A stretch of DNA of 18,064 bases, taken from NCBI GenBank assembly GCA_016212295.1, contig JACRGO010000034.1, forward strand, positions 1 to 18,064, written 5' to 3'. The first letter of the stretch is position 1. Every line of letters begins with the position of its first letter. The notes below the pieces were generated by a model. It was not told the origin of the DNA and did no database searches. It saw only the letters and a list, made by a program, of their open reading frames with translations. A program made the translations under genes and the position numbers. Source of the DNA: Nitrospinota bacterium. Its GTDB lineage: Bacteria > Nitrospinota > Nitrospinia > JACRGO01. Of this stretch, positions 2,132-18,064 are shown piece after piece.

Positions 2132-2279
2132 AGCGCAACATGTCCGCAACCAAAATAAATTTCTATGTATTCAAACGTTCGATGATATTATTACATCCAG
2201 AATTTTACGTTTTCCACGTTAATTAAATCAGCGTTGAATGCTTCAAGAGAAATTTGTTTTGGTTGCGGACATGCGCGCT
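2132..2279. repeat. Inverted-repeat element: about 32-bp arms (2132-2164 and 2248-2279, about 29/32 complementary) separated by 83 bp. The left arm plus core (2132-2185) is repeated at 6286-6340
   Basis: Left arm AGCGCAACATGTCCGCAACCAAAATAAATTTCT versus the reverse complement of AGAAATTTGTTTTGGTTGCGGACATGCGCGCT. The ORF-track extension of fabH (MNASREICFGCGHARS...) is a translation of the right arm. Confidence 0.75.
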
Positions 2280-2335
2280 CCAAGAAGCGCTTTAAAAACT
2301 TGCGCGGAAAACGCAAATTTCTGGACGTAATATAT

Positions 2336-3316: not shown

Positions 3317-3431
3317 ATTTTTTTCAGCTTTCAGTATTCAGCAAAGGCATGGCAAAACTAAAAAAACAAATCCCTGGCCGCTGATTGCTGTGCGCTGAAA
3401 GCTTTTTGTGGTTTTTCGCGTCAAATTCCAC

Positions 3432-3437
3432 TATAAT
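3432..3437 (+). promoter_or_regulatory. Perfect TATAAT -10 hexamer upstream of the secreted-protein gene; no convincing -35
   Basis: TATAAT 35 bp upstream of the ATG at 3472. Implies the inserted gene may have its own promoter. Confidence 0.25.
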
Positions 3438-3471
3438 TTTTTTGATTTATAAACGGAGAGAAGGAAGAAAG

Positions 3472-4560: not shown

Positions 4561-4577
4561 TTTTAAAAAGAAAATAA

Positions 4578-5516: not shown

Positions 5517-5525
5517 CGGTTTATG

Positions 5526-5546
5526 ATTGACAATTGACGATTGAAC
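5526..5546. repeat. Heptamer tandem array ATTGACA-ATTGACG-ATTGAAC (contains two phased TTGAC -35-like hexamers)
   Basis: Three consecutive 7-mers read directly from the sequence. Confidence 0.7.
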
Positions 5547-5554
5547 CTTAAACA

Positions 5555-5589
5555 TTAAATCTTAAATCTTAAATCTTAAATTTTAAATC
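5555..5589. repeat. Heptamer tandem array (TTAAATC)x5 immediately upstream of the 5594 ORF
   Basis: TTAAATC TTAAATC TTAAATC TTAAATT TTAAATC. Confidence 0.85.
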
Positions 5590-5593
5590 CCTT

Positions 5594-6274
5594 ATGCTGG
5601 CAAACAGAGAAATAAAAACGAGACTGGAAAAGGCTTTCCCTATAAAACAGGCGGTGGCGCTGGCCGATGTTTTTATAGAATTCAAGGGAGACCTTGTCAA
5701 GTCTGGAGATTTCAACGAGCTTAAAAATGTAGTAAAAGAACTTGCCGAGGCTCAGAAGCGGACAGAAGTAAAAATGGGAGAACTTGCCGGCGCTCAGAAG
5801 AGGACAGAAGTAAAAATGGAAGAACTTGCCGAGGCGCAGAAACGGACGGATTATGAACTTGTCCTCTTTCGCCGCACTTTTACCTCTCAGATTGGAGGGC
5901 TTGGGGCGCGATGGGGTATGATGACGGAATCGTCGTTTCGCAACGCCATGGAGGGAATACTGTCAGAAGTTGGGTTCAAGGCCGAGAGGTTCATAGCTAA
6001 AGACAAAAAGGGGACAGTTTTCGGGTATCCGGCGGAAGTGGAGCTTGATGTTGTCGTTAAAAACGGCAAGACCCTGGTCATTGAGATTAAATCCTCGGTT
6101 AGCCGGGCGGACGCGGCCTCCTTTGACAAGAAGGTAAGCTTTTACGAGAAGGAGACACGGCGGAAGGCTAGCAGGAAGATAATTATATCTCCTTATACCG
6201 AGCCCGCGGCCCATGACGCCGCCAAAAGACTGGGGATCGAGGTTTTTACTGATATAAATGACCCGGCTTTGTAA
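5594..6274 (+). CDS. Coiled-coil-repeat plus PD-(D/E)XK-like nuclease-fold protein (DUF3782-like), inserted between fabD and fabG
   Basis: N-terminal 14-aa tandem repeats [14 protein letters not shown] x about 2.6. C-terminal [24 protein letters not shown] fits the D...(D/E)xK restriction-endonuclease-like core. No fab-pathway role. Confidence 0.55.
5738..5850 (+). repeat. In-frame 42-bp tandem repeat (about 2.6 copies) inside the 5594-6274 CDS
   Basis: Units 5738-5779 and 5780-5821 are near identical. The third unit diverges after about 27 nt. Confidence 0.85.
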
Positions 6275-6285
6275 CACAAACCCAC

Positions 6286-6340
6286 AGCGCGACGTGGCCG
6301 CAACCAAAATAAATTTTCGATGCATTCAAACGTTTCATGA
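6286..6340. repeat. Second copy (about 85% identical, one indel) of the 55-bp element seen at 2132-2185. A degraded right-arm remnant may lie at about 6406-6431
   Basis: AGCGCGACGTGGCCGCAACCAAAATAAATTTTCGATGCATTCAAACGTTTCATGA versus copy 1. Both copies lie just after a stop codon and upstream of a fab gene. Confidence 0.75.
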
Positions 6341-6418
6341 AGCCCCAAATTTCAATTGTCAGATAACAAATAAATCTCAATAACCAAAATTACAAAGAAA
6401 CAAAGAAATGAAATTGTT

Positions 6419-6447
6419 TTGGACATTCGGTAATTGTAATTTATAAT
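6419..6447 (+). promoter_or_regulatory. Candidate promoter TTGGAC-17-TATAAT upstream of fabG
   Basis: Perfect -10 TATAAT at 6442-6447 and a weak -35 at 6419-6424, in an AT-rich region about 130 bp upstream of fabG. Confidence 0.3.
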
Positions 6448-6574
6448 TTATTTGTCATTTGGGATTTCGTTTTCATTTTGGTTGAAGCGAAACCGCGCCA
6501 GGAAGCTTTGTGTCCTGGTGGCTTCGTGGCATATTTTTAATTAGAATCTTAACTGAAAGAAAGGTTTACCGAAA

Positions 6575-7318
6575 ATGAGTCTCGAAGGAAAAACCGCGTT
6601 AGTCACAGGGGCAGGCAGGGGAATCGGCAAGGCGATAGCCCTTGCCTTGGCCAAGGACGGGGCGAACGTGGCCGTGTCCGATATAGACCAGGGTTCCGCC
6701 AACCAAACCGCTGAAGAAATCAAATCCCTTGGAAGAGGCTCCATTGGATTGAAAGCGGACGTGTCCAGGTCCGAAGAGGTGGAGGGGATGTTTCAGGCAA
6801 TTGTGGACAAATTCGGCGGGGTTGATATACTGGTGAATAACGCCGGGATCACCAGGGACGGGTTACTGGTAAGAATGAAGGACGAGGATTGGAGCCTGGT
6901 CATGAAGATCAATCTGGACGGGGCCTTCTATTGCTCCAGGGCGGCCGGCAAGATCATGATGAAGCAAAGAAGAGGGGCCATAATCAACATCGCCTCAATC
7001 GTGGGGGTCATGGGAAACGCGGGCCAGGTGAATTATTCCGCGTCCAAGGCGGGCCTGATCGGCCTGACGAAATCCAGCGCACGGGAGCTTGCCTCAAGAG
7101 GGGTCACGGTAAACGCCATCGCCCCGGGTTTCATCGATACGGCAATGACACAGGCCCTGAACGATAAGGTAAAGGAAAAACTGATGGAGCAGATCCCGCT
7201 GGGCCGCTTGGGCTCCTCGGAGGACATCGCGAACGCGGTCCTCTTCCTTGCGTCTCCGGAAGCGGCCTATATAACCGGCCAGGTGCTCCATGTGAACGGG
7301 GGCATGCTGATGGCGTAG
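6575..7318 (+). CDS. fabG: 3-oxoacyl-ACP reductase (FabG)
   Basis: LEGKTALVTGAGRGIGKAIA Rossmann motif and SDR catalytic S...YSASKAG. 247 aa. Confidence 0.93.
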   Translation: MSLEGKTALVTGAGRGIGKAIALALAKDGANVAVSDIDQGSANQTAEEIKSLGRGSIGLKADVSRSEEVEGMFQAIVDKFGGVDILVNNAGITRDGLLVRMKDEDWSLVMKINLDGAFYCSRAAGKIMMKQRRGAIINIASIVGVMGNAGQVNYSASKAGLIGLTKSSARELASRGVTVNAIAPGFIDTAMTQALNDKVKEKLMEQIPLGRLGSSEDIANAVLFLASPEAAYITGQVLHVNGGMLMA

Positions 7319-7331
7319 GATGAGTTGTGAT

Positions 7332-7373
7332 GGTTCAGGGTTCAGGGTTCAGGGTTGAAGGTTGAAGGTTGAA
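7332..7373. repeat. Heptamer array (GGTTCAG)x3-(GGTTGAA)x3
   Basis: Read directly from the sequence. Imperfect inverted partner (AACCCAG)x3 at 7473-7492. Confidence 0.85.
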
Positions 7374-7472
7374 AGGGCATAATCACGGCAATATTGCATG
7401 TTTTTTTTTAGGGCATTCCACCTCGGATATAGCGCCGCTAAATAAAAATCCGCGTGGGTACGGGCTTTCTGA

Positions 7473-7492
7473 AACCCAGAACCCAGAACCAG
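7473..7492. repeat. Heptamer array AACCCAG x about 3, imperfect inverse of the 7332 array (one mismatch per unit)
   Basis: CTGAAACCCAGAACCCAGAACCAG. Confidence 0.7.
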
Positions 7493-7556
7493 TTAACGTT
7501 TACAAAAATTTTTTAACTATTAAATTAACATAAAAATCTTTTAAAGGAGGAAAAGG

Positions 7557-7787
7557 ATGGATACAGCGGAAAAAGTAAAGAATATCATCATGGAGCAGCT
7601 TGGAGTCGAAGAAGGCCAAGTGACCTCCGAGGCTTCCTTTATTGACGATCTAGGCGCGGATTCCCTGGACACAGTGGAACTCGTCATGGCCTTTGAAGAG
7701 GCATTTGACATTGAGATACCGGATGAGGAAGCGGAAAAAATCATTACGGTAAAAGACGCAGTGGACTATATTGAGAAGCATGTATAA
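7557..7787 (+). CDS. acpP: Acyl carrier protein
   Basis: 76 aa with the DSLD phosphopantetheine-attachment motif. AAGGAGG RBS. Confidence 0.95.
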
Positions 7788-9044
7788 GTGAAAGACCAAG
7801 TAAATCAAAGAAGAGTAGTGGTGACCGGGCTCGGCCTGGTGACCCCCCTGGGAATAGGGGTGAAGGAAACGTGGGAAGGAATTTGCGCTGGACGGTCCGG
7901 CATCGGACGCATCACCAAATTCGACCCGACGGATTACTCCTGCCAAATCGCCGGGGAGGTTAAGGGATTCGACCCGACCAATTACATGGACGCCAAGGAG
8001 GCCAGGAAGATGGACCCCTTCATCCATTACGCCATGGTCGCGGGCTCCTTTGCCGTGGAGGATTCCGGCCTCAAAATAACTCCTGAGAACGACACCAGGG
8101 TAGGCGTAAGCATCGGCGTGGGCATGGGCGGCCTTCCGGTTATTGAAAAATACCACGAGGTCGTCCTGGAACGTGGCCCCAGAAAAATCACGCCATTCTT
8201 CATCCCAATGCTTATCGCAAACATGGCGGCCGGCCATCTGTCGATGAAGTTCGGCGCCAAGGGGCCGAACTGTTGCAGCGCCACAGCCTGCGCCACCGGC
8301 ACCCACGCCATGGGCGATTCCTTTGAAATCATCCGCCGCGGCGACGCGGACGTCATGATCGCGGGCGGCGCTGAATCCGTTATCACGAAACTGGGGATCG
8401 GCGGGTTTTGCGCCATGAAGGCCCTGGCCGCGAAATACAACGGCCAGCCGGAAAAGGGAAGCCGCCCCTTTGACAGGGACCGCGACGGGTTTGTTATGGG
8501 TGAAGGCTCAGGCGTGATGGTGCTTGAGGAGTTGGAATCGGCCAAACGCAGAGGGGCCAGGATTTACGCGGAAATTGTGGGATACGGAATGAACGCCGAC
8601 GCCTATCACATGACCTTGCCCCCGCCGGAGGGAGAAGGCGCCGCCCGGTGCATGAACCTGGCCCTGAAAAAAGGAAATATCAGGCCGGAAGAGATTGATT
8701 ACATAAACGCCCATGGCACTGGAACAGCCGCGGACGTCCTGGAAACAAAGGCCATAAAGTCCGTCTTCGGCGGCCACGCATACAAGCTGGCGGTCAGCTC
8801 CACCAAGTCAATGACCGGACATCTCCTCGGGGCAGCCGGTGGAATAGAGGGCGTTTTTTCCGTTCTTGCCATTGAAAGGGGAGTCCTTCCCCCGACCATT
8901 AATTTAGAGAACCCCGACCAGGAATGTGACCTGGATTATGTCCCTAACCAATCCAGAAAAAAAGAAATAAATTTCGCACTTTCCAATTCCTTTGGATTCG
9001 GCGGGACCAACGCCTGCGTTATTTTCAAGAAATTTAATTCCTGA
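7788..9044 (+). CDS. fabF: 3-oxoacyl-ACP synthase II (FabF)
   Basis: GTG start abutting the acpP stop. RRVVVTGLGLVTPLG N-terminus. Cys-His-His triad context (ATACATG, HGTGT, GHLLGAAG). Confidence 0.92.
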   Translation: MKDQVNQRRVVVTGLGLVTPLGIGVKETWEGICAGRSGIGRITKFDPTDYSCQIAGEVKGFDPTNYMDAKEARKMDPFIHYAMVAGSFAVEDSGLKITPENDTRVGVSIGVGMGGLPVIEKYHEVVLERGPRKITPFFIPMLIANMAAGHLSMKFGAKGPNCCSATACATGTHAMGDSFEIIRRGDADVMIAGGAESVITKLGIGGFCAMKALAAKYNGQPEKGSRPFDRDRDGFVMGEGSGVMVLEELESAKRRGARIYAEIVGYGMNADAYHMTLPPPEGEGAARCMNLALKKGNIRPEEIDYINAHGTGTAADVLETKAIKSVFGGHAYKLAVSSTKSMTGHLLGAAGGIEGVFSVLAIERGVLPPTINLENPDQECDLDYVPNQSRKKEINFALSNSFGFGGTNACVIFKKFNS

Positions 9045-9861
9045 ATTTATCCAGTTCCCTCGTTGTTTCCTGGGCAATGATTTCCATCAAATCGCTTGAG
9101 ATTTTTGGGACAACTGAAGGGACGCATGGCATTCCGGCTGAGGAATGCTGGAGGGAGACGAACTTTCCCGACGGACACGCCTTGCACGATTCGCAGCGGG
9201 CGAGGATTTTCTTGGGCGGAAGGCCAAGCCCCTCGCCCACTTTCCGCAATTTTTCTATCTGGCCCTGAGACAAGGGATGCAGGTCCCCCAACTGCCTTGC
9301 CGCGTGGGTGATTTGCGCCACGTGCTCGATCCGCTCCAACAGATTATATGCGTCAAACACGGTGGCGCCAACTGTCAGGGACCCATGCCGTTCCAGCATG
9401 ATGGCGTCGAAATCCTTGATGTATTCCTGAATGGACTGCGGCACCTCGTCCGTTGTGGGGGTGGAATATGACGCGGTTGGAATGGATCCCAGTGTGAAGA
9501 CCACCTCCGGCAGCATGCACTTGGCCAGGGAGACTCCAGCCAACGTGAAGGCCACGCAATAGGTGGGATGAGCATGGACCACCGCCATGACGTCCGGCCT
9601 CATCCTGTAGCACTCCAGGTGCATCCTGATTTCAGACGAAGGACCGTATTGGCCGGATATCCGCGCACCCTCCATATCGATCACCACCAGGTCGCGCTCG
9701 TTAATGAAACCCTTATGGAGTTTGGTGGGAGTGGTGAGGACGCGGTTTCTGGGCAGGCGGAGGCTCACGTTGCCGTCGCTGGCCGCGATCCATCCCTTGT
9801 TGTACATCCTGCGGCAGACCTCCACTATGTCTTTTCTATGCTCTTCTTCGTTTTTTATCAT
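9034..9861 (-). CDS. Class II aldolase (FucA/RhaD/adducin-head family) with a C-terminal Cys-rich extension; BMC cargo candidate
   Basis: True start MIKNEEEHRKDIVEVCRRMYNKGW at 9861; the upstream MSLVTRHLSLISV is repeat-derived. HAHP metal-binding context. About 60-aa C-terminal tail with CESCKACPSGK...C and an amphipathic SSDLMEIIAQETTRELDKF. The 3' end overlaps the fabF 3' end convergently by 11 nt. Confidence 0.85.
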   Translation of the reverse strand: MIKNEEEHRKDIVEVCRRMYNKGWIAASDGNVSLRLPRNRVLTTPTKLHKGFINERDLVVIDMEGARISGQYGPSSEIRMHLECYRMRPDVMAVVHAHPTYCVAFTLAGVSLAKCMLPEVVFTLGSIPTASYSTPTTDEVPQSIQEYIKDFDAIMLERHGSLTVGATVFDAYNLLERIEHVAQITHAARQLGDLHPLSQGQIEKLRKVGEGLGLPPKKILARCESCKACPSGKFVSLQHSSAGMPCVPSVVPKISSDLMEIIAQETTRELDKFRN

Positions 9862-9872
9862 GACTGAAATCA

Positions 9873-9928
9873 GTGACAAGTGACGAGTAACAAGTGACAA
9901 GTGACAAGTGGCGAGTAACGAGTAAAAA
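9873..9928. repeat. Heptamer array A: GTGACAA GTGACGA GTAACAA GTGACAA GTGACAA GTGGCGA GTAACGA GTAAAAA
   Basis: Eight consecutive 7-mers. Preceded by TGACTGAAA. Confidence 0.9.
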
Positions 9929-9964
9929 ACGGAAAATGCCCCACTTGATCCATGCCTCTTGACA

Positions 9965-10237
9965 CTATCCCGAACAATTTATCTGATCCACTATAGCTGT
10001 AATGACCGAATGGACCGGCGCGGAGTCGTCTCCAAAAAGCTGCCTGGCCGCGTTCCCTTCCGGGGCAACCAGCACCGTGTCCCCTTCCCCTGCCTGCACA
10101 AAATCAACAGCCAGGAAGGAGCTTCCCGTTGGTTTCTGCTCCTGGTCCAGGGGCTGGACCACAAGGACCTTGTGCCCCTCGTAAGCCGGGTGCTTCAAGG
10201 TCGCGACGACATTTCCCAATACCTTGCAGATCAACAT
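9965..10237 (-). CDS. BMC vertex protein (EutN/PduN/CcmL family, BMC-P) copy 1
   Basis: MLICKVLGNVVATLKHPAYEGHKVLVVQP matches the PF03319 N-terminus. The ORF-track start at 10327 is an extension through the repeat array. Confidence 0.85.
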   Translation of the reverse strand: MLICKVLGNVVATLKHPAYEGHKVLVVQPLDQEQKPTGSSFLAVDFVQAGEGDTVLVAPEGNAARQLFGDDSAPVHSVITAIVDQINCSG

Positions 10238-10247
10238 TTTTTTCTTA

Positions 10248-10296
10248 GTGACCAGTGACGAGTAACGAGTGATCAGTGGCGAGTAACGAGTGACGA
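10248..10296. repeat. Heptamer array B1 (GTGACCA GTGACGA GTAACGA GTGATCA GTGGCGA GTAACGA GTGACGA)
   Basis: Seven 7-mers. Inverted partner B2 lies 24 bp away. Confidence 0.9.
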
Positions 10297-10320
10297 GTCT
10301 TAGAAGCATAGGTTTTTTAC

Positions 10321-10369
10321 TTGTCACTCGTCACTTGTCACTCGTCACTATTTATTTGTCACTCGTCAC
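10321..10369. repeat. Heptamer array B2 (TTGTCAC TCGTCAC TTGTCAC TCGTCAC TATTTAT TTGTCAC TCGTCAC), inverse of B1. The two form a palindrome of about 120 bp
   Basis: Reverse-complement orientation of B1. It contains the stop codon and last codons (..SSDE*) of the BMC-P gene at 10359-10637. Confidence 0.9.
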
Positions 10370-10637
10370 TGCTCCTTGCGTCTATATTGTCAACAATCCC
10401 GACGATACCGGCGTCTATGGGACTGAAGGTGTCCGGCAGAGTCAGGGCCGCCTCGCGTCCGACCACATAAGAGACGGTCTCGCCGATTCCGGCCTGTTGG
10501 GCGTCCACCATCACAAGAGGCTCTCCCTTGGGTTTTCGCTCGTGGTCCACCGGCTGCACCAGCAGGAGCTTGATTCCCTCCAGGCTTGGATGCTTCACCG
10601 TGGCCACCACCCGTCCTATTACTTTTCCTATGTGCAT
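10359..10637 (-). CDS. BMC vertex protein (EutN/PduN family, BMC-P) copy 2
   Basis: MHIGKVIGRVVATVKHPSLEGIKLLLVQPV. GGAG RBS. C-terminal tail encoded by repeat array B2. Confidence 0.85.
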   Translation of the reverse strand: MHIGKVIGRVVATVKHPSLEGIKLLLVQPVDHERKPKGEPLVMVDAQQAGIGETVSYVVGREAALTLPDTFSPIDAGIVGIVDNIDARSSDE

Positions 10638-10772
10638 GAAAAAACTCCAGCCACAAACTTTATTCAGTTTTCCCTTAATATATCAATAACTACGTTGACA
10701 ATTGAATTTATTGCGCCACTTTTTAGTTTGCCTATTTCAGAAATAATCAGTTTATTGTGAATGGTATTAATA

Positions 10773-10994
10773 CTACCGAGCCTTTTGAAAATGTTGCCAT
10801 GCCTCATCCTCCTCTGGACGGTTCCAATCTTCCGCGAGGGCTGTTTCGCTTAACAAGGCTTCCTCATTTACATGAATTAAAGGTTCCTCATCAAGAATCG
10901 TGACTAATGCACGGCAGGATGAAGACAGTTTAATCGGTTCAGACAACTTAATATTGCCTTTTAGATCAATTGTTGCTTCAAGTATGCGGACCAT
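10773..10994 (-). CDS. Small AF2212/AbrB-like, antitoxin-like protein (73 aa), orphan
   Basis: True start MVRILEATIDLKGNIKLSEPIKL...ALVTILDEE with AGGAGG 7 nt upstream; the ORF-track TTG start translates the RBS. C-terminal LSETALAEDWNRPEEDEAW resembles the tails of type II antitoxins that pair with PIN toxins. No toxin gene is adjacent. Confidence 0.4.
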   Translation of the reverse strand: MVRILEATIDLKGNIKLSEPIKLSSSCRALVTILDEEPLIHVNEEALLSETALAEDWNRPEEDEAWQHFQKAR

Positions 10995-11066
10995 ATTAGG
11001 CCTCCTTTTTTTCAAATAAATATGCTTTTATTTAATGAAATCAAATATACACATTTCTTGATAGAG

Positions 11067-11078
11067 TAGCAATTGCTA
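11067..11078. promoter_or_regulatory. Perfect 12-bp palindrome TAGCAATTGCTA flanked by inverted TGATAG/CTATCA hexamers; candidate operator
   Basis: About 70 bp upstream of the 10994 start codon on the - strand. Confidence 0.3.
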
Positions 11079-11084
11079 TCACAA

Positions 11085-11630
11085 TTAGAGCAATTTAAAA
11101 TTCAAATCCGCATGGGGGGCGGGGATGATCTCCTTTGCAACCAGGGTCCCCCCTTCCATTAAATTCCTGATCCCTGCCTCTATCGCGGCTTCCACCTCGG
11201 AGATGTCGCCGGTCAGGGTGTAAAACGATTTTCCGCCAAGGCCGTTGGCAAGGCGCAGCTCGATGAGGTCCACCTTCGCCGCCTTCACCGCCGTGTCGGC
11301 TGAAACAATGGCCGAGGCCACTGAGAAGGTCTCCACTATCCCCAATGCCGCAAGTCCCGCCACCTCGGTGCATGCCTCCATTGCCGGGATGACCTGCCCA
11401 TGTACCTGGGGCAGAAAAAGTTCGTCCACCACAAGTTCTGCCCCTATGCTTATCCCCTCCCTGACGGCTTCCTCGACCGAGGCAACGTCGCCGCGCACAA
11501 GGACCATGTACTTTCCGGGGCACACGGTCCTTGCTTCCATGAGCTTCACCGGGGCCTTTTTCATCATGGCGTCGCAAACCCGTATTCCCCTGGCAACGCT
11601 TCTTAGTTCTATTAATCCTATAGCTTCCAT
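11085..11630 (-). CDS. Tandem BMC-domain shell protein (BMC-T, PduT-like)
   Basis: Two PF00936-like halves: MEAIGLIELRSVARGIRVCDAMMKKA... and LAALGIVETFSVASAIVSADTAVKAAKV.... 181 aa. Confidence 0.8.
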   Translation of the reverse strand: MEAIGLIELRSVARGIRVCDAMMKKAPVKLMEARTVCPGKYMVLVRGDVASVEEAVREGISIGAELVVDELFLPQVHGQVIPAMEACTEVAGLAALGIVETFSVASAIVSADTAVKAAKVDLIELRLANGLGGKSFYTLTGDISEVEAAIEAGIRNLMEGGTLVAKEIIPAPHADLNFKLL

Positions 11631-11638
11631 TAATTATC

Positions 11639-11672
11639 CACGTTATCAGTTCACGGTTTACGGTTCACGGTT
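11639..11672. repeat. Heptamer array CACGTTA TCAGTT CACGGTT TACGGTT CACGGTT; left boundary of the four-helix-bundle cassette
   Basis: Inverse partner AACCGTG array at 12042-12069. Contains the stop codon of the 11665-12015 gene. Confidence 0.85.
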
Positions 11673-12015
11673 TTTTCAATGAATCATGCAAGGCTTGCAA
11701 CATTTTTGATATGGATTTCAACTCATTAATCAAACCTTTTGCGTCACTGTCGGAAAATACGTTAATTTCCCTTGAAATATAAACTTGTGTCCGCAGTTCC
11801 GCCGCCGAGCCTTTTGCAATGTTTATAAACCTTTGAAAATCTGGAACACTGTTTCTTTCGCACCCTTCCGCGATATTCGATGGAATAGATACGGATGAGC
11901 GCAACATTTGATCTTTCAGCCCATAATCACGGCAATCTTTTAATAATTTATAGAGGGTTACTGTCAGTCTGCAAGATTTTTTCCAAACTTCTAAATTCTC
12001 AAAGGAAGCGCTCAT
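11665..12015 (-). CDS. Four-helix-bundle protein (23S rRNA intervening-sequence protein / Avd-like family, TIGR02436-type), intact copy
   Basis: LEVWKKS...LKDQMLRSSVSIPSNIAEG..R.S..DFQRFINIAKGSAAELRTQVYIS matches the family consensus. Flanked by inverted CACGGTT/AACCGTG heptamer arrays. Confidence 0.85.
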   Translation of the reverse strand: MSASFENLEVWKKSCRLTVTLYKLLKDCRDYGLKDQMLRSSVSIPSNIAEGCERNSVPDFQRFINIAKGSAAELRTQVYISREINVFSDSDAKGLINELKSISKMLQALHDSLKKP

Positions 12016-12041
12016 AACCTTTTTCTATTTTCTGCTTCACC

Positions 12042-12069
12042 AACCGTGAACTGTGAACCGTGAACCGTA
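12042..12069. repeat. Heptamer array AACCGTG AACTGTG AACCGTG AACCGTA; right boundary of the four-helix-bundle cassette
   Basis: Reverse complement of the 11639-11672 array. Confidence 0.85.
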
Positions 12070-12090
12070 AACAATTTTCTTATTTTATGT

Positions 12091-13425
12091 CTACCTGCTT
12101 TCAATTCCCACATACCTCCCGTTCACCTCCGCCACTGTCCCGTCCATGGAGGCGTGGACTCTGGCGCCCATTTTTCCCTCCGGTATCTCGCCCACCAATT
12201 GGCCTTGCTTCACCTTGTCCCCTGTCTTCACCACAGGGACGGCGGCCGCGCCGATATGCTGCCTCAAGGGAATTTTTACATTGGTGAAGGGAAAATCCCT
12301 TTCTTCCCATTCGGGGTGGACGTCGTATTCCTTTAGACCCAGCCTTTGAATCAACCGGTCCTTGGGGATTTTCCTGTAGTCGCGGTATTGGTCCTGGGCC
12401 AGGCCGCTTCGTGAATGCGGGTTCTTTATCCCTGCCCCGGCTAGGCGTCCCTTGAATTCCCTGAAAACAACGCGGGGAGAAAGGGCCATGGGACAGGCAT
12501 AGAGGTCGCATACCCCGCATTCACAACAGAGAAAGGCGCGGGTTATTGTGTCGGTGTCAAGGTCCCGATCATAGTCTATTACCCGCATAATCTTGTGCGG
12601 CTCAAGACTATGCCCCTGGAGCCAGCGGGGACAAAAATCAGTGCAGTAGCGGCACTGCTCGCAAATTGATTTGGACATGCGCGCCTCTGTGGCCACTGTC
12701 CTGCTTCTTCGCATTACGTAAGGGTGGTCCTTTGGGAGCACGATGATCCCGGAGGTGGTCTTCGTGACCGGCTCCCCGCAATCCCCTGCCAACCGTCCCA
12801 TCATGGGTCCCCCCACCAGAATAACGTAATCCTCTATCCTGGCCCCGCCGCACAGCGCTATGAGGTCCTTGAAAGAAACGCCGATAGGGACCCGCAGGAC
12901 CCTTGGCCAGTTGACCTCTCCGCATACCGTTATCCGCTGGCGGACCACGGGTTCGCCGTGGAAGGCGCGGTGGATGTTGAGCAGGGTGTTGACGTTATTC
13001 ACCAAGACGCCCACATGCAAGGGAAGGCCGCCTTCGGGAATTATTCTTCCAGCGGCGTCCAGGACCAAAACATGCTCATCGCCCGCCGGGTAATAATTCC
13101 CCATTTCATGCAGCCTGATATTTTTTTCGGAGGCTGCTGCCTGGGAAAGCGATTTTACCGCTTCGTGATAATGGGCCTTGACAGCGATAATCCCCTGTCC
13201 GGCACCAACTGCCTCCATCACGAGCTTGACGCCGGAGACGATCTCGTCCGCCGCCGTCTCCATGGTCCTCTGGTCCGTGCAGAGAAGGGGCTCGCATTCC
13301 GCTCCATTGGCGATCACTATCTCAGCCCTGGCGTTGATCTTTACGTGGGTTGGAAACCCAGCCCCTCCGGCGCCCACCACTCCGGCGTTTTTAACTTTTT
13401 CTATTAATTGTTCGCGAAAACGCAT
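12091..13425 (-). CDS. PduS/RnfC-like Fe-S flavoprotein oxidoreductase (BMC-associated)
   Basis: True start MRFREQLIEKVKNAGVVGAGGAGFPTHVK with the RnfC/NqrA-type GAGGAGFP motif. Two 4Fe-4S motifs, CEQCRYCTDFCP and CCECGVCDLYACP. The ORF-track start at 13521 runs through repeat array C (LLVTRHLSLVT). Confidence 0.85.
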   Translation of the reverse strand: MRFREQLIEKVKNAGVVGAGGAGFPTHVKINARAEIVIANGAECEPLLCTDQRTMETAADEIVSGVKLVMEAVGAGQGIIAVKAHYHEAVKSLSQAAASEKNIRLHEMGNYYPAGDEHVLVLDAAGRIIPEGGLPLHVGVLVNNVNTLLNIHRAFHGEPVVRQRITVCGEVNWPRVLRVPIGVSFKDLIALCGGARIEDYVILVGGPMMGRLAGDCGEPVTKTTSGIIVLPKDHPYVMRRSRTVATEARMSKSICEQCRYCTDFCPRWLQGHSLEPHKIMRVIDYDRDLDTDTITRAFLCCECGVCDLYACPMALSPRVVFREFKGRLAGAGIKNPHSRSGLAQDQYRDYRKIPKDRLIQRLGLKEYDVHPEWEERDFPFTNVKIPLRQHIGAAAVPVVKTGDKVKQGQLVGEIPEGKMGARVHASMDGTVAEVNGRYVGIESR

Positions 13426-13435
13426 TTGAATGATA

Positions 13436-13498
13436 GTGACTGAAAGATAGTGACAAGTGACAAGTGACAAGTGACGAGTGACAAGTAAAAAGTAAAAA
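13436..13498. repeat. Heptamer array C (GTGACTG..GTGACAA x3 GTGACGA GTGACAA GTAAAAA GTAAAAA)
   Basis: Inverted partner D at 13571-13619, 72 bp away. Confidence 0.9.
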
Positions 13499-13570
13499 CT
13501 TATAGCTCTTTGGGCGGACAAAAAAAATCAATGGCCAGGGATCAGTACCGGCTCCTGGATTCTTTTCTAC

Positions 13571-13619
13571 TCGTCACTCGTCACTTGTCACTCGTTACTG
13601 CTTCTCGGTAACTCGTCAC
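13571..13619. repeat. Heptamer array D (TCGTCAC TCGTCAC TTGTCAC TCGTTAC ... TCGTCAC), inverse of C
   Basis: Ends 4 bp from the aldehyde dehydrogenase stop codon. Confidence 0.9.
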
Positions 13620-13623
13620 TGCT

Positions 13624-15114
13624 TCAAACAATTCTAAACCTGTCCTTCAAAGTACAGCGGCGCTCCCTTGTGAAGTGGACGGCGGTGGTCAGGCCCTCTC
13701 CGGTGGGGCTGGCTATGGTGAAGGACGTATACCCTTCCCCGGTGAAGCCCAATCCGGCGTATGAAGGTCCGTTCTTCACGAAGATGGAGGTGTTGATTTC
13801 CCGCGCCATGCGGCTCAGCTTGTCGATGTTTCTGGAGTGCATCACCGCCGTGTGGCCGAACCCGTGCTCCACCTCCTTGGCCAGGTCAATGGCGGCGTCC
13901 GCGTCCTTGACCCTAACCAACGGAATCAAAGGCATGAGAAGTTCCATCTGGACAAAGGGATGGCCGGCGTCCGTCTCGGCGATGATCAACCGGATATCCT
14001 CCCCGACGTTGACGCCGATCTCCTTCAGGATAACCGCCGCGTCCTTTCCCACGAATTTCTTGTTAACCACTCCGTGGGAGCCGTCAACCGGCGGCTCCTG
14101 GATAATAAGCTTCCGCATCTGGCGGATTTGCTGCTGGTTCAACTCGTAGCAGCCGTTTCGCTTGAGGGCGGATTTCAGGGAATCCGCTATTGAGGCCACT
14201 GCTATGATCTCCTTTTCCACTATGCAGACCATGTTGTTGTCGAATGACGCGCCGTTTACTATGTCAACCGCCGCGTTTTCGATGTCCGCTGTCTCGTCCA
14301 CCACCACAGGCGGATTACCTGGTCCGGCGGCGATCACCTTCTTTCCTGAATTCATGGCGGCCTTGACCACCGCGGGTCCGCCGGTGACCACCAATAACCG
14401 TATGCCGGGATGCTCCATGAGTTCCCTGGCCGATTGAATGGTCGGCTCTGATATAGTGGTTATGAGGTCCCTGGGACCGCCCGCCTTGGCTATGGCCCTG
14501 TTGAGGAGATCGACTGAATAAATGGAGATTTTTTTAGCGGTCGGGTGGGCGTTGAACACCACCGCGTTTCCCCCGGCCAGCATGCTCACCGCGTTGTTGA
14601 AGATCGTCGCGAAGGGATTTGTGCATGGGGTGATGGACCCTATGACGCCGTAAGGGGCGCGTTCCACCAACGTGAGTCCGTTATCGCCCGTGTAGCTGAC
14701 TGGTTGCAGTATTTCCAGTCCAGGCGTTTTTTCTATTGACAACCTGTTTTTCAGCGCCTTGTCCTTGACCCGGCCCATGCCTGTCTCTGACACCGCCATC
14801 TCCGCGAGTTTTTGCGCCTCTTCCAGGGCGGTTGATCGCATGGAGGCGATGATCCCGCCACGAAGGGACAAGGGCATACTGCTAAGTTCCGCGAAGGCCT
14901 TCGCGGCGGCAAGGACCGCTGAATTAATATCGCCGAACACTCCAAGCCCCTCGCCCTTGCTTTCCTTAGCGGATGAGGACGGACAGCCGTGAGGCGGATT
15001 GAACGCCGCCTGGGGCTTCGAGGGACCTGGAGCGCTAATGGTCTGCCCGCTCCATATCCTTTCAGCAACCCTTCTCACTATTGAGGCAATCTGGTCTTCT
15101 GTAAGTTGTGTCAT
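13624..15114 (-). CDS. CoA-acylating aldehyde dehydrogenase (PduP/EutE-like BMC core enzyme) with N-terminal encapsulation-peptide-like helix
   Basis: 496 aa. ALDH catalytic region ...MVCIVEKE.../...GEGYTSFTIASPTGEG. N-terminal amphipathic EDQIASIVRRVAERI followed by a Pro/Ser/Gly linker before GVFGDINSAV. Confidence 0.88.
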   Translation of the reverse strand: MTQLTEDQIASIVRRVAERIWSGQTISAPGPSKPQAAFNPPHGCPSSSAKESKGEGLGVFGDINSAVLAAAKAFAELSSMPLSLRGGIIASMRSTALEEAQKLAEMAVSETGMGRVKDKALKNRLSIEKTPGLEILQPVSYTGDNGLTLVERAPYGVIGSITPCTNPFATIFNNAVSMLAGGNAVVFNAHPTAKKISIYSVDLLNRAIAKAGGPRDLITTISEPTIQSARELMEHPGIRLLVVTGGPAVVKAAMNSGKKVIAAGPGNPPVVVDETADIENAAVDIVNGASFDNNMVCIVEKEIIAVASIADSLKSALKRNGCYELNQQQIRQMRKLIIQEPPVDGSHGVVNKKFVGKDAAVILKEIGVNVGEDIRLIIAETDAGHPFVQMELLMPLIPLVRVKDADAAIDLAKEVEHGFGHTAVMHSRNIDKLSRMAREINTSIFVKNGPSYAGLGFTGEGYTSFTIASPTGEGLTTAVHFTRERRCTLKDRFRIV

Positions 15115-15121
15115 TGTCTAA

Positions 15122-15409
15122 TTACTTCTTAAACACCAACTTATCGTCGATGTCCCATTGGTCCACTATGGCCATTATGACAGCGTCTACTGGTTTATTA
15201 TTGGTTATGTCCGTTTGCCTCGCCGAACTTCCAGTGGCGTAGAGCACTATCTCTCCCTGGCCCGCGCCGACGGAGTCGGCCGCCACCACATAGTTCTGGC
15301 CGGCCTTCCCCCTGGAATCAACGCCAGCCACAAGCTGGAGCTTGAGGCCCTCCAGCTTAGGGTCTTTCTGGGAGGCGACAACCGTCCCAACCACTTTTCC
15401 GAATAACAT
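15122..15409 (-). CDS. BMC vertex protein (EutN/PduN family, BMC-P) copy 3
   Basis: [34 protein letters not shown] 8 nt upstream. The ORF-track start at 15445 would overlap the BMC-H gene. Confidence 0.85.
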
Positions 15410-15419
15410 GAGCGGTCTC

Positions 15420-15710
15420 CTATTCCGTAGCGTTCGAGCGCCCAAGCGGGAGGGCCTTGTCGATATTGAGGTGCGGCCTTGGAATCACGTGGACGGACAC
15501 CAACTGCCCGACCTTCTCAGCGGCGCGGGAGCCGGCCTCGGTGGCGGCCTTGACCGCCGCGACGTCTCCCCTCACTATGGCGGTGACGTAGCCGCCGCCG
15601 GTTTTTTCGTATCCGACCAACTCAACCTTGGCCGCCTTGACCATGGCGTCCGACGCCTCAACCATGGCGGTGAAACCCCGCGTTTCTATCATTCCCAATG
15701 CTTCAGCCAT
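15420..15710 (-). CDS. BMC-H hexameric shell protein (PduA/EutM-like)
   Basis: [56 protein letters not shown] is a canonical PF00936 sequence. GGAGG RBS. Confidence 0.93.
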
Positions 15711-15768
15711 AAAAAAACCTCCTTATAAAAAGTTAAATTAATAAAATTCGTAACTACTCATGTTATCC

Positions 15769-15839
15769 GGTTCAGGGTTCAGGGTTCAGGGTTCAGAGTT
15801 CCCGGTTGAAAGCTTTGTGGCCTTTGTGCCTTTGTGGTG
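15769..15839. repeat. Heptamer array (GGTTCAG)x4-like followed by the octamer-like repeat CTTTGTGG CCTTTGTG CCTTTGTG in the BMC-T/BMC-H intergenic gap
   Basis: Same GGTTCAG unit as at 7332. Confidence 0.8.
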
Positions 15840-15845
15840 AAAAAA

Positions 15846-16472
15846 TTATTTTTTCTTCAACGCCACTCCCTCCAAACCGGAAAGCGCGGTGATCGCGGCC
15901 TCCGCCGCTGAGTCTATTTCCGATTCCGACCCGGACATATAAAGCCTCCCATAGGCGCCGAAGGGACGCACCTCAACAAGTTTTACATTCGCCGCCTTTT
16001 CCGCCTCGTTCGCGCCGAAGATAACGTATCCGGCAGGCTCAGTCTCCAGTATGAAGAGCGATTCGCCCGGAAGGATCATGGACCCGCTCCGGTTACGATT
16101 GATAAGTTGGCATTGATACGCCTCCATCGCGCGGATGATCTGGTTTGAGACGATGTCCGGCTTGATCCGGTCCGACTCCTTGATCTCCAGGTAGTCCAGG
16201 ATGGACTGTCCCGCCAGCCTCACCTCCCCCTTGTCGTGCTCGTGGACTTCCAATACCCCGTAGGCCCGCTCCACGATCTGGACCGCCGGCTGGACCTTGG
16301 TGGCCTTCAAGGCCACATCCAGGACCTTGTTGATTGCGAGTCCGGGCGCTATTTCAACAAAGAGCGACGCCACTCCAGGCACCGGGAGGAACCCCTTGGC
16401 CGTGGACCCTATATAAGAGGCCAGTTGAGCTTGAAGACTGTCCAGAAAAACATAAGTGCGCAGGGTTATCAT
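15846..16472 (-). CDS. Permuted tandem BMC-domain shell protein (BMC-T, PduB/EutL-like)
   Basis: 208 aa with two permuted-BMC halves ([19 protein letters not shown]... and ...[30 protein letters not shown]...) paralleling the EutL architecture. GGAGG RBS. Confidence 0.7.
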
Positions 16473-16491
16473 TGTTTAATCCTCCATTTTA

Positions 16492-16528
16492 AGTGACTAT
16501 AAAACCAGTGACCAGTGACGAGTAATTA
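16492..16528. repeat. Heptamer array E (GTGACTA...GTGACCA GTGACGA GTAATTA)
   Basis: Overlaps the stop codon of the 16526-16807 gene. Inverse partner F at 16827-16847. Confidence 0.8.
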
Positions 16529-16807
16529 GTTTGTGCTCCTCAAGGAGCGTTGTAAGCCAATAATCATTTTTGAAATTTCGTCCAGTTCTTCCAATAAACT
16601 ATTTTCAATTCGCGACTCCAGGAGTTGTAAATTTTTACTTATGATGATTTGTGTTTCCAGTTCCGCTATATTAGATGGAATGGATACGGCCGCTCGCCGC
16701 ATTTGGGATAGCAGGCCAAATTTCTCTTCCGAAGGAAAGGAAGCAATCTGTTCCACAAAGCTGATTGACCTTTTCCATACCTCCAGGCGCTTATGCGGCT
16801 TTCCCAT
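16526..16807 (-). CDS. Four-helix-bundle protein (Avd-like / 23S-IVS family), second copy with an internal deletion of about 20 aa; possibly degenerate
   Basis: MGKPHKRLEVWKRS...FGLLSQMRRAAVSIPSNIAE|LETQIIIS lacks the G..R.S..DF..F..IA.GS segment present in the copy at 11665-12015. True ATG at 16807 with GGAGGG RBS; the track start at 16840 is repeat-derived. Confidence 0.65.
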   Translation of the reverse strand: MGKPHKRLEVWKRSISFVEQIASFPSEEKFGLLSQMRRAAVSIPSNIAELETQIIISKNLQLLESRIENSLLEELDEISKMIIGLQRSLRSTN

Positions 16808-16826
16808 GAAATCCCTCCCTTTTAAC

Positions 16827-16847
16827 TCGTCACTTGTCACTCGTCAC
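16827..16847. repeat. Heptamer array F (TCGTCAC TTGTCAC TCGTCAC), inverse of E
   Basis: Read directly from the sequence. Confidence 0.85.
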
Positions 16848-16853
16848 TATCTT

Positions 16854-17723
16854 CTAATACTGTTTCGCCACGATCGCGTCCTCTATCTTCCTCGTGTTGG
16901 CCAGGGTGCGCTGCCGGTTCGTCATGCCGATCGTTATATACAGCACGTCAATGATGCTTGACTGCGCGATCCTCGAGGCAAGGGCCTCGCTCCGGTATTT
17001 GGTCTCCTTGGAAGAGGTCACGAGGACCACGTCCGCTACCTTTGCCAGGGGCGAAAGGGAATTATTAGTGATTGCTATCGCCTTGACCCCGTTTTTCCTG
17101 GCGACTTCTATTGTGTCTATGGGGTCCCTGGTGCTCCCGGAATGGGAGATGGCAAGGACTAGGTCGCCCTTTCTCAATAGCGCGGCCTCCATCATCTGGA
17201 GGTGGCTGTCGTTTTGATAGGAGCACCAAAGCCCAAGCCTCAGGAATTTATTAAAGGCGTCAAAAAGGATGGGGGTGGAGGTCCCGACCCCGATTATCAG
17301 AATTTTTTTCGCCTTGCTCAACAGCTTCACGGCTTCCCCGACGGCCTCCGGCTTCAGCGCCTCCAGGGTGCTTTGCAGGGTCTCGATGTTGGCGGAAAAG
17401 ACCTTGCGGATGATGGTGGCCGTCCCGTCCCTTTCGCTCACGTCCTCATGTATGGCGTGGTGGATGGGAGATACAAGGTCCCGCGCCAAATTAATCTTCA
17501 GGTCCTGAAAGCCCCTGTATCCCATGGTCCTGCAGAAACGGATCACGGTCGCCTCGCTGGCCCCGGCGCCGATTGCCACTTCGCTCACCGACTGGTCAAG
17601 AACGCCCTGCGCGTTGCCGAGCGCGTATTCCGCCACTTTTTTCTCCGCCGAGTGAAGTGACGGCAGCATGCCCCTCAGTCTGGCAAGACAATTTTCCCTT
17701 GGGGCCGCTTGGGTCTTCAGCAT
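16854..17723 (-). CDS. RpiR/MurR-family transcriptional regulator (HTH plus SIS sugar-phosphate-binding domain)
   Basis: LHSAEKKVAEYAL...SEATVIRFCRTMGYRGFQDLK is an RpiR-type HTH. The SIS domain shows IGVGTS...ISHSGST. ATG at 17723 preferred; the track GTG at 17738 overlaps the -10 box. Confidence 0.85.
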   Translation of the reverse strand: MLKTQAAPRENCLARLRGMLPSLHSAEKKVAEYALGNAQGVLDQSVSEVAIGAGASEATVIRFCRTMGYRGFQDLKINLARDLVSPIHHAIHEDVSERDGTATIIRKVFSANIETLQSTLEALKPEAVGEAVKLLSKAKKILIIGVGTSTPILFDAFNKFLRLGLWCSYQNDSHLQMMEAALLRKGDLVLAISHSGSTRDPIDTIEVARKNGVKAIAITNNSLSPLAKVADVVLVTSSKETKYRSEALASRIAQSSIIDVLYITIGMTNRQRTLANTRKIEDAIVAKQY

Positions 17724-17729
17724 GATGAA

Positions 17730-17757
17730 ATTATACACGGAAAAAATTTCTTGTCAA
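17730..17757 (-). promoter_or_regulatory. Strong sigma70-like promoter TTGACA-16-TATAAT for the RpiR gene; the ATG lies 6 nt after the -10, so the mRNA is probably leaderless
   Basis: - strand TTGACA corresponds to 17752-17757 and TATAAT to 17730-17735. Confidence 0.55.
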
Positions 17758-17764
17758 GTTTTTT

Positions 17765-17805
17765 TTCATGAAATTTTTTTTCATGAAGTAATATTTCATC
17801 ATGAA
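17765..17805. promoter_or_regulatory. Three TTCATGAA-type palindromes (17765-17772, 17780-17787, 17795-17805) between divergent promoters; candidate operator set
   Basis: Two perfect 8-bp palindromes, each preceded by a T8 run and spaced 15 bp apart, plus TTCATCATGAA. A similar TTCATCATG overlaps the RpiR start codon. Confidence 0.4.
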
Positions 17806-17811
17806 TCCTTA

Positions 17812-17840
17812 TTTACGGTCCTGCGTCCTTGTGTTATAAT
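17812..17840 (+). promoter_or_regulatory. Candidate divergent promoter TTTACG-17-TGTTATAAT (extended -10) reading rightward
   Basis: TGnTATAAT at 17832-17840. A GC hairpin GTCCGCGTTGCGGAC at 17848-17862 lies just downstream. No ORF in the remaining 220 bp. Confidence 0.35.
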
Positions 17841-18064
17841 TCCTTCCGTCCGCGTTGCGGACTATTCACTGCTTTTCGCAAATATTAACAGTCTCATAAT
17901 AGTGCCAGCATAATTTTCCCTGGCTCTCGTTCCCAGGCTCCTGCCTCACTGCCATTAAGTTAAGGGAAAAAGCCTTTGTTTTCAATTAGTTAGGCGGTCT
18001 AGATTTTACATTAACTATATGGTAATATGTGTCTATTATGCATTAATTATTAAATTTATAGTAA

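Follow-up and report, generated by a model that had tools for sequence, protein, structure and literature searches.

The protein family PF05635 is named after open reading frames (ORFs) that lie inside 23S rRNA intervening sequences (IVSs). The IVS of Coxiella burnetii is a selfish element of 428 to 444 nt with an S23p ORF and terminal inverted repeats, which form a 28-bp stem (PMC4990558). This stem is cut by RNase III, and the element is lower in GC than the genome and was horizontally acquired; according to an older proposal quoted in the same work, such an element is mobile, with its ORF coding for a component of that mobility, and the S23p protein is reported not to be detectably made in Coxiella (PMC4990558). 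We analyzed an 18,064-nt stretch of DNA, here called the window, from a Nitrospinota bacterium (GenBank assembly GCA_016212295.1, contig JACRGO010000034.1, positions 1 to 18,064), in which a bacterial microcompartment (BMC) operon is broken by two small genes for four-helix-bundle (4HB) proteins, at 11665-12015 and 16526-16807. The first gene, 4HB-1, lies in a unit that we call cassette 1 and whose two ends are inverted arrays of a 7-nt repeat. We consider it probable that window positions 11642-12072 are one copy of a widespread selfish mini-element of about 430 to 440 nt. The closest known relative of this element is the S23p-type IVS, here found in operons and with heptamer-array ends; this likeness was absent from a preliminary description of the same DNA.

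The ends of the element also resemble a second group of described sequences. Intergenic heptamer repeats, such as TAACTGA and the cyanobacterial short tandemly repeated repetitive (STRR) sequences, are like our arrays in that they consist of tandem 7-nt units, with a copy number of two to six or higher. Most of them are intergenic, many directly precede a start codon, a genome can have several units, and their phylogenetic distribution is patchy (PMC4679880). TAACTGA repeats are known from Beggiatoaceae, Cyanobacteria, and Bacteroidetes, and no mechanism of spread was evident to the authors (PMC4679880). Geobacter metallireducens has paired inverted tandem-repeat sites, alike in that the inverted pairs stand at variable distance, which were interpreted as binding sites of a global regulator (PMC2700814). 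Both papers propose regulatory roles and nowhere mention a 4HB or IVS protein (PMC4679880, PMC2700814), whereas the arrays described here delimit a mobile unit that carries a gene, and those without a gene are what remains of it. At three of the loci analyzed below (L020, L022, and L024), 4HB genes are flanked by the unit AGTTATC, which reads TAACTGA on the opposite strand. A full-text search, which covered few subscription journals, found no paper that links heptamer repeats to PF05635 genes.

Cassette 1 spans 431 nt on the minus strand (11642-12072), between the genes for a PduS-like flavoprotein and a PduT-like shell protein. Read in the sense direction, it consists of a 5' array (12042-12072; GTTTACG GTTCACG GTTCACA GTTCACG GTT), a leader with the ribosome-binding region between that array and the start codon (12016-12041), the 4HB-1 gene (11665-12015), and a 3' array (11642-11672; AACCGTG AACCGTA AACCGTG AACTGAT AAC) that contains the stop codon of 4HB-1. 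The gene encodes a 116-amino-acid four-helix-bundle protein (PF05635/TIGR02436; pI 9.05). The two arms are inverted, 31 nt long, and 84% complementary, with a 17-nt perfect core. The unit is GTTCACG, and Tandem Repeats Finder returned period 7 at 11649-11672 and 12042-12072; the same unit family also flanks the closest homologues of cassette 1 in other phyla. The preliminary description had placed the gene between inverted heptamer arrays, which we confirmed, with the limits of the arrays corrected to 11642-11672 and 12042-12072. Cassette 1 has a GC content of 39%, versus 57% in the flanking BMC genes, and no sigma-70-like promoter was found upstream of 4HB-1. When the sense RNA of the cassette was folded, both termini were paired in the minimum-free-energy and centroid folds (-124.8 kcal/mol, z = -4.2).

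Cassette 1 has the size, the PF05635 ORF, and the stem-forming terminal inverted repeats of the S23p-type IVS (about 430 to 760 nt). The two are alike in size (431 nt here, with a family median of 443 nt), in the single PF05635 ORF, in being AT-rich relative to the host, in the terminal stem (about 28 bp there, 31-nt arms here), in their sense position within a host transcript, and in horizontal spread. They differ in location, as an IVS sits in 23S rRNA, whereas both copies in the window have protein-coding genes of an operon on either side. A scan for conserved rRNA motifs beside the cassettes found none at about 280 loci, and Rfam found no rRNA in the window. Tandem-heptamer termini, a second possible difference, are not described in the IVS literature consulted; this comparison is with IVSs as they are described there.

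We performed a genome scan, limited to one genome per species, which returned 392 relatives, and we kept the best 80. These come from Desulfobacterota, Planctomycetota, Verrucomicrobiota, Lentisphaerota, Chlorobium, SAR324, and others. The peptide patterns used in the scan lie within the protein, so the search could not select for arrays. Two further sets comprised 70 usable metagenome loci and 33 loci on viral contigs from IMG/VR (31 to 54% identity). For each locus, we scored the upstream flank against the reverse complement of the downstream flank and compared this bracket score with that of shuffled flanks. At each of the 20 closest loci, the heptamer arms are inverted and separated by about 370 nt. 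Flank complementarity exceeded the shuffled 95th percentile at 71 of 82 genome loci and the shuffled maximum at 58 of them; in the metagenome set, which is independent, 64 of 70 loci exceeded the shuffled 95th percentile. Among the viral-contig loci, 22 of 33 scored above 12, the maximum for shuffled flanks of the genome loci. The expectation that other 4HB genes would prove to have inverted flanks is therefore borne out in all three sets. The units on the viral contigs are quite different (GGCAGAA, AGTGGAG, GTTGGCT, and GGTAAGA), and two of the exceptions examined there are 4HB domains fused into proteins of more than 1,000 amino acids.

In-phase GTT triplets upstream of the gene have period 7 in 30 loci and periods of 5, 6, 8, or 9 in zero to two loci, and array polarity is fixed, with GTT-type arrays upstream and AAC-type arrays downstream. 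The median array has 4.7 to 4.9 units. Upstream arrays end a median of 27 nt before the ORF, and downstream arrays start approximately at the stop codon. From outer repeat to outer repeat, the element has a median size of 443 nt (interquartile range, 424 to 467), and the GC content of the 4HB gene is below that of the host locus in 75 of 80 loci. Heptamer arrays could also be ordinary simple repeats made by slippage, whose position around 4HB genes is coincidental, and arrays do occur in many window spacers that have no 4HB gene and elsewhere in the host loci at 0.26 to 0.42 per kb. Within 160 nt of the gene, however, their density is 4.5 per kb, versus 0.26 elsewhere, in the genome loci (17-fold) and 5.0 per kb, versus 0.42, in the metagenome loci (12-fold). 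Matched inverted units occur in about 85 to 90% of loci, in hosts from many phyla, and the arrays travel together with the gene. In more distant Nitrospinae, the same operon is free of arrays. The density, inverted matching, and co-movement of the arrays contradict coincidence, to which we give almost no credence.

We confirmed the proposal, made in the preliminary description, of small mobile cassettes with heptamer-array ends by comparing near-identical copies. Among about 160 genome and metagenome loci, there are many pairs with 4HB genes 93 to 99% identical at the nucleotide level and both flanks unrelated, such as L004/L005 (98.6%), L186/L187 (98.8%), and L029/L170 (97.3%). For 29 pairs (18 loci) that are at least 92% identical in unrelated contexts, the block that the two copies have in common is 429 nt long (median), and its ends lie at medians of +2 and -2 nt relative to the outer limits of the inverted repeats. 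The termini of one group are GTAACCGTTCACGG...CCGTGAACGGTTAC, with unrelated AT-rich sequence outside. As judged from sequence comparison, these pairs show that the element moves as exactly the array-to-array unit. Its landing sites are AT-rich junctions between operon genes. For cassette 1 itself, no copy at least 90% identical was found in another context in the genomes and metagenomes, where the best match has 84% protein identity. The recent mobility is that of its sister lineages, and we infer the movement of cassette 1 from these relatives and from the operon comparison given below.

The same pairs bear on a different account of the arrays, in which they are cis-regulatory sites of the 4HB gene or host operon (operators or an RNA element) and the gene is carried by another vehicle. 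The position of the arrays, close before the start codon and at the stop codon, would suit such sites. For Beggiatoaceae, a role in translational regulation was proposed for TAACTGA arrays near start codons (PMC4679880), and the paired sites of G. metallireducens were taken to bind a global regulator (PMC2700814). About half of our arrays also have stop codons in all three frames, versus 10 to 20% in shuffles, on both strands; these stops may be a side benefit that eases insertion at gene junctions and not a defining property. Against this account, near-identical copies in unrelated contexts have only the array-to-array block in common, so no larger vehicle is visible. In addition, different cassette types replace one another at a single junction, and the cassettes are AT-rich relative to their hosts. 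We therefore regard cis-regulation with another vehicle as unlikely; a regulatory role of the arrays is in itself compatible with mobility.

Analysis of the units indicated that the two arms of a cassette, and the arms and the protein, belong together. The 48 loci with two strong arrays have 35 different units. When the downstream unit is reverse-complemented and compared with the upstream unit, the two differ at 0.94 of 7 positions within a locus and at 2.92 after permutation of loci, and none of 1,000 permutations reached the observed value. The more identical two proteins are, the smaller the distance between their units (Spearman -0.26; none of 500 permutations as extreme, p < 0.002), a correlation to which shared ancestry contributes. 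This pairing of unit and protein also holds within individual genomes. In the Nitrospinae relatives, type-2 proteins, which are 73 to 93% identical to the second copy in the window, have AGTGACG arrays at all five loci, which represent three insertion sites. Type-3 proteins, 16 to 19% identical to 4HB-1, have TTTAGAT arrays, and a type-3 relative at 54 to 57% identity has ATGCGGA arrays. On this comparison, each protein lineage is seen to carry its own heptamer unit on both arms, in agreement with the earlier observation that the two window copies have different repeat units.

To place the insertions, we compared the host operon with its orthologues. The window carries plsX, fabH, fabD, fabG, acpP, and fabF on the plus strand and the BMC operon on the minus strand. 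The operon runs in the order rpiR-like regulator, tandem-domain shell protein, BMC-H, EutN, aldehyde dehydrogenase, PduS/RnfC-like flavoprotein, PduT-like shell protein, two EutN genes, and class II aldolase. Ten ORFs of the window were searched against Pfam, and the remaining ORFs read as fatty-acid synthesis and EutN/BMC shell genes. The preliminary description had called an insertion between pduS and pduT abnormal for a BMC locus, and the orthologues agree, as in relatives this junction is either empty or holds a different or decayed cassette.

Two relatives, L087 and L088 (PduT 63% identical), have a compact operon without a 4HB gene, in which genes overlap or lie at most 27 nt apart. There, pduS runs 4 nt into pduT, leaving no spacer, and no period-7 arrays were found in 14.5 kb of these operons. 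L086, from a more distant relative, likewise has no 4HB gene and no pduS/pduT spacer, and a restriction-modification pair is inserted elsewhere in its operon (3917-5673), with an MjaI-like endonuclease and an N6/N4 methyltransferase between the aldehyde dehydrogenase and pduS genes. L082 (88%) has no 4HB gene at either site. Of seven spacers inspected in this operon, six contain arrays, and the array in the 90-nt pduS-pduT spacer is a solo one of the unit ACTCGTC. In L084 (87%), that spacer holds a decayed type-3 4HB gene between TTTAGAT arrays. L203 (89%) has an intact type-2 cassette at rpiR/BMC-T and an intact type-3 cassette at pduS/pduT, and L202 has three cassettes, at rpiR/BMC-T, aldehyde dehydrogenase/pduS, and pduS/pduT, the last of type 3. 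The window has type 1 at pduS/pduT, where its close relatives have type 3. The right boundary of its type-1 cassette is within about 5 nt of the type-3 boundary, and this shared boundary adjoins the conserved TAATT(A/G)ATGGAAGC start region of pduT. The comparison shows that, in this Nitrospinae lineage, cassettes of the GTTCACG, AGTGACG, and TTTAGAT types have invaded the BMC operon time and again at shared junctions, where one type has taken the place of another.

Other observations on these and further operons concern the cassettes and their surroundings. In L084, the 3' end of pduS and the upstream TTTAGAT array are duplicated in tandem about 137 nt apart (6429-6635); this duplication precedes the decayed 4HB gene, and the pduS stop codon is inside the array. 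L082 has gene-less GATTGAT/ATCAATC inverted pairs at 2333-2502 and 8226-8310 with a common conserved loop motif, AAATATGCTCTTTA, which suggests that these pairs are a non-autonomous element family with its own internal sequence. Multiple cassettes also occur in other hosts, with two within a Nitrospinae chemotaxis operon (L204) and three within 3.3 kb of a Desulfobacterales locus (L028). In L204, GCGGAAT-type arrays also lie inside ORFs called CheW and CheA (2715-2754, 6030-6101, and 6897-6949), which may reflect either insertion in frame or read-through in the gene calls.

The second 4HB gene of the window lies in cassette 2 (16504-16848, minus strand), a decayed type-2 unit with AGTGACG arrays at 16825-16848 (5') and 16504-16523 (3'). 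Its arms (16504-16523 and 16825-16844) are 20 nt long and 90% complementary, so the bracketing reported for this copy stands. Its gene is not intact, as the 4HB-2 ORF (16526-16807) has a 23-residue in-frame deletion that includes the near-invariant AEGxER...GSA block; intact homologues have 115 to 121 amino acids. At the rpiR/BMC-T junction, L202 and L203 carry intact orthologues of cassette 2 with the same arrays.

Heptamer arrays also occur away from the two 4HB genes, which corrects the earlier picture of the window. A strict period-7 detector found 8 strong arrays in the window versus 0 in 20 shuffles, and Tandem Repeats Finder returned period 7, with 2.3 to 7.4 copies, at 13 sites. All of the arrays lie in spacers or overlap gene ends, and their units are GTTCACG, AGTGACG, GGTTCAG, and CTTAAAT; the TAACTGA unit is absent from the window. 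A gene-less inverted AGTGACG pair on the minus strand lies between the aldehyde dehydrogenase and pduS genes (13435-13620). At this junction, L202 has an intact type-2 4HB gene of 120 amino acids between the same AGTGACG arrays, and because the outer flanks are near-identical to those of that intact cassette, we identify the window pair as a type-2 cassette minus its gene. A second gene-less AGTGACG pair, also on the minus strand and with a 20-nt loop, lies between the two EutN genes (10247-10371), where its array provides the last four codons and the stop codon of EutN-2; in L087, the two EutN genes overlap by 4 nt.

A solo array of the AGTGACG family, of 3' type on the sense strand, lies between EutN-1 and the aldolase gene (9871-9930, minus strand). 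The fabG/acpP spacer holds a gene-less pair on the plus strand (7328-7490), which consists of a GGTTCAG/GGTTGAA array (7328-7373) and an imperfect inverse AACCCAG (7473-7490). A solo array of the GGTTCAG family lies between the BMC-T and BMC-H genes (15769-15807, minus strand), and another solo array is found at 5526-5589. Decay is also seen elsewhere, as internal stop codons in the 4HB genes of L016 and L057. Together, these loci show that the element decays by gene loss and leaves gene-less inverted pairs and solo arrays behind. The orientation of gene-less pairs relative to host genes could be scored for only 9 usable pairs, and the keto-content criterion fails for some units.

Where both neighbours are co-directional, the 4HB gene is in the sense orientation at 49 of 50 genome loci and at all 36 metagenome loci (85 to 1). 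The terminal inverted repeats are symmetric, and the bias therefore concerns the gene. A gene that lacks a promoter and relies on the host for its transcription would suit this bias, and from survival almost only in the sense orientation, we infer that the host promoter transcribes the element. The bias would also fit a transcript intermediate. In such an RNA route, the excised stem-loop would be copied by a reverse transcriptase encoded elsewhere, with the 4HB protein as an Avd-like cofactor on the arms, and the cDNA would be integrated. Avd, of the same superfamily, is an obligatory partner of the reverse transcriptase of diversity-generating retroelements (DGRs) (PMC10053308). Target-site duplications are absent and the RNA termini are predicted to pair, as such a route would have it. 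However, no reverse transcriptase was found in the window or beside the cassettes inspected, the Pfam model for bAvd is not matched at its cut-off, the arms have no sense-strand G-U bias, and the sense bias is equally explained by the need for host transcription. We consider an RNA route improbable.

We confirmed that the 116-amino-acid gene product belongs to the four-helix-bundle/23S rRNA IVS family, as the preliminary description had stated. 4HB-1 matches PF05635 with 121.1 bits (cut-off, 33.8) over profile positions 1 to 105 of 106, TIGR02436 with 117 bits, and NF008912 with 154.5 bits (cut-off, 124). 4HB-2 matches PF05635 with 67.2 bits in two stretches, the match being split by its deletion. 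A profile of 80 homologues matches PDB structures 2GSC (E = 2.5e-28, residues 11 to 122) and 2RLD (E = 2.4e-11), each deposited with five chains. PF05635 is the sole domain found in the protein, and no Y1 (IS200/IS605-like) transposase was found. Neither 4HB-1 nor 4HB-2 matched the PADLOC defence models or the PHROGs phage families, and we rejected the defence-system and phage-family readings for that reason. The PF05635-type family is large, with 14,654 clusters at 50% identity (E up to 0.001). Estimates of dN/dS were 0.01 to 0.17 in seven of the eight relative pairs that yielded one and 0.39 in the eighth; for 4HB-1 against its relatives, they were 0.05 to 0.10. Such low values show that the 4HB protein is functional and kept by purifying selection. 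The 4HB domain also occurs inside very large proteins, of 1,323 and 1,038 amino acids in L102 (3-3974) and L092 (864-3980), and protein P0141, of 2,474 amino acids, has 12 stretches that match it.

The Avd protein of DGRs, which is a pentamer, was part of the preliminary description, in which 4HB-1 was called Avd-like. This holds at the level of the structural superfamily, where both are small, basic four-helix bundles (PMC10053308). It does not hold for the bAvd-like profile PF22296, which 4HB-1 does not match at E up to 1 and which P0272, an intact type-2 relative of 4HB-2, matches with 31.6 bits, below the cut-off of 40. One could take the weak match of the intact type-2 relatives, together with the fact that PF05635 is the family most often found beside DGR reverse transcriptases (PMC10053308), to mean that the 4HB genes are DGR remnants, that is, Avd minus the reverse transcriptase and the template and variable repeats (TR/VR), with arrays that are incidental. 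The window argues otherwise, as no reverse transcriptase domain was found among the ten ORFs searched against Pfam, the others reading as fatty-acid synthesis and EutN/BMC shell genes, and there is no long direct repeat of the TR/VR type; it had already been recognized as not holding a complete DGR. The absence of PHROGs matches and the position of the examined cassettes between housekeeping genes also speak against a remnant. The 4HB gene differs from DGR Avd in its heptamer flanks and in moving on its own. This reading is contradicted for the window, and we judge its chances to be very slight.

Three further classes of elements resemble the cassettes in part. In RAYT/REPIN systems, a single small gene stands between inverted copies of a short repeat that belongs to it, and many inverted doublets of that repeat without the gene are scattered through intergenic DNA; every lineage of the gene goes with a repeat class of its own, and a genome can hold several classes. 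The genome organization here is alike, with a gene and its own repeat and with gene-less inverted doublets. The components differ, as the protein is a 116-amino-acid helical bundle and not an IS200-like Y1 transposase, the repeats are tandem heptamers and not single palindromes, and repeats and gene move as one unit. Integron cassettes share with our element a promoter-less single gene, transcription from outside, a fixed orientation, the occurrence of several cassettes per operon (L028 and L202), and replacement at the same site, but here there is no integrase, no attC at one end only, and no attI platform. Miniature inverted-repeat transposable elements (MITEs) are alike in being short, with terminal inverted repeats and gene-less derivatives; the difference is that we found no transposase-bearing parent element and no target-site duplication.

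Our preferred explanation of cassette 1 is a selfish mini-element made of a promoter-less PF05635 gene of about 116 codons and two terminal inverted repeats of about five 7-nt units each. The 4HB protein, probably a pentamer like its solved homologues, would bind the heptamer arrays of its own element with about one subunit per heptamer, and the bound protein would mark the two ends for mobilization by a separate catalytic activity. The one-to-one ratio is suggested by the pentameric homologues together with the arrays of about five units. In the host transcript, the arms would pair into a stem of about 30 bp that may be cut by RNase III as in the S23p-type IVS, a step proposed from that precedent. 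Such cutting would let the element sit in an operon or in rRNA at little cost.

Several results weigh against parts of this explanation. About 10 to 15% of the homologous loci lack clear arrays, and no flanking arrays were found at two inspected 4HB domains that are fused into large proteins. Among 116 elements, the lengths of flanking direct repeats equalled those of a control with flanks from different loci, and there is no sign of target-site duplication in this set; as single cases, L004 has AAAATAT at both junctions and L124 has an apparent 9-nt repeat, seen by eye only. No transposase, integrase, or reverse transcriptase was found in the window or beside the cassettes examined, and to our knowledge, no catalytic activity is known or predicted for the 116-amino-acid helical bundle. 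The case for binding of the arrays by the 4HB protein comes from one source, the co-variation of unit and protein, whose signal is inflated by shared ancestry. G-U-compatible mismatches between the arms number 63 in the sense and 91 in the antisense direction, and with no sense excess, selection for RNA pairing in the sense transcript is unsupported by this test. Finally, the strong purifying selection seen here differs from the situation of S23p in Coxiella, where the protein was not detectably made.

The window holds further small insertions and repeats beside the cassettes. Between fabD and fabG is a plus-strand gene (5594-6274) with DUF3782 and PD-(D/E)XK nuclease (PDDEXK_10) domains. It is preceded by the heptamer arrays ATTGACA and CTTAAAT at 5526-5589, contains three 42-nt coding tandem repeats (5737-5862), and matches the PADLOC model C3a181 (E = 3.4e-12); this gene, too, has the look of a selfish insertion. 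A separate short element with terminal inverted repeats (CGCAACCAAAATAAATTT...) is present in two copies, at 2132-2273 in the plsX-fabH spacer and at 6286-6498 in the spacer between the PDDEXK gene and fabG. Its arms are 26 to 27 nt long with complementarity of at most 96%, the copies have a common internal sequence (...ATTCAAACGTT...), and both look MITE-like. On the minus strand, an 80-amino-acid ORF without a family match (10773-11015) lies between the PduT-like gene and EutN-2. At this junction, L082 and L087 have no insert, and L202 has a VapB/PIN toxin-antitoxin pair, to whose VapB the window ORF is not homologous; the site is a second junction of the BMC operon with variable cargo. Two tandem repeats of other periods were also found, namely a 9-mer repeat after plsX (2089-2128; AAAGTGACT, 4.6 copies) that adjoins a heptamer array and an 8- to 9-mer repeat (15813-15837; CTTTGTGGC, 2.9 copies) beside the GGTTCAG array.

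A broader interpretation, which we put forward tentatively as possible but not the likelier outcome, is that array-ended PF05635 genes are a very large, unrecognized class of autonomous-looking mobile elements in many phyla. In that case, a pentamer would read the 7-nt units as an end-recognition factor, possibly a strand-transfer factor, the STRR and TAACTGA repeats would be footprints or non-autonomous derivatives of such elements, and ORF-bearing 23S rRNA IVSs would be rare insertions into rRNA. If true, this would unite three loose ends, namely the origin of ORF-bearing rRNA IVSs, the intergenic heptamer repeats, and the function of 4HB proteins outside DGRs. The first of these were reportedly proposed to be mobile elements in 1993, and intergenic heptamer repeats have been known since 1990 and are still unexplained. 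The element would be a minimal one, of about 430 nt with one 116-amino-acid protein that does not resemble an enzyme, and its movement would lie beyond any known transposase. This would point to a new code of protein-nucleic acid recognition, with 7 nt per subunit and a separate catalytic partner, or to a new activity of the bundle. It would also explain the small "hypothetical" genes and repeat arrays that interrupt operons in some lineages, and it would give them a simple annotation signature.

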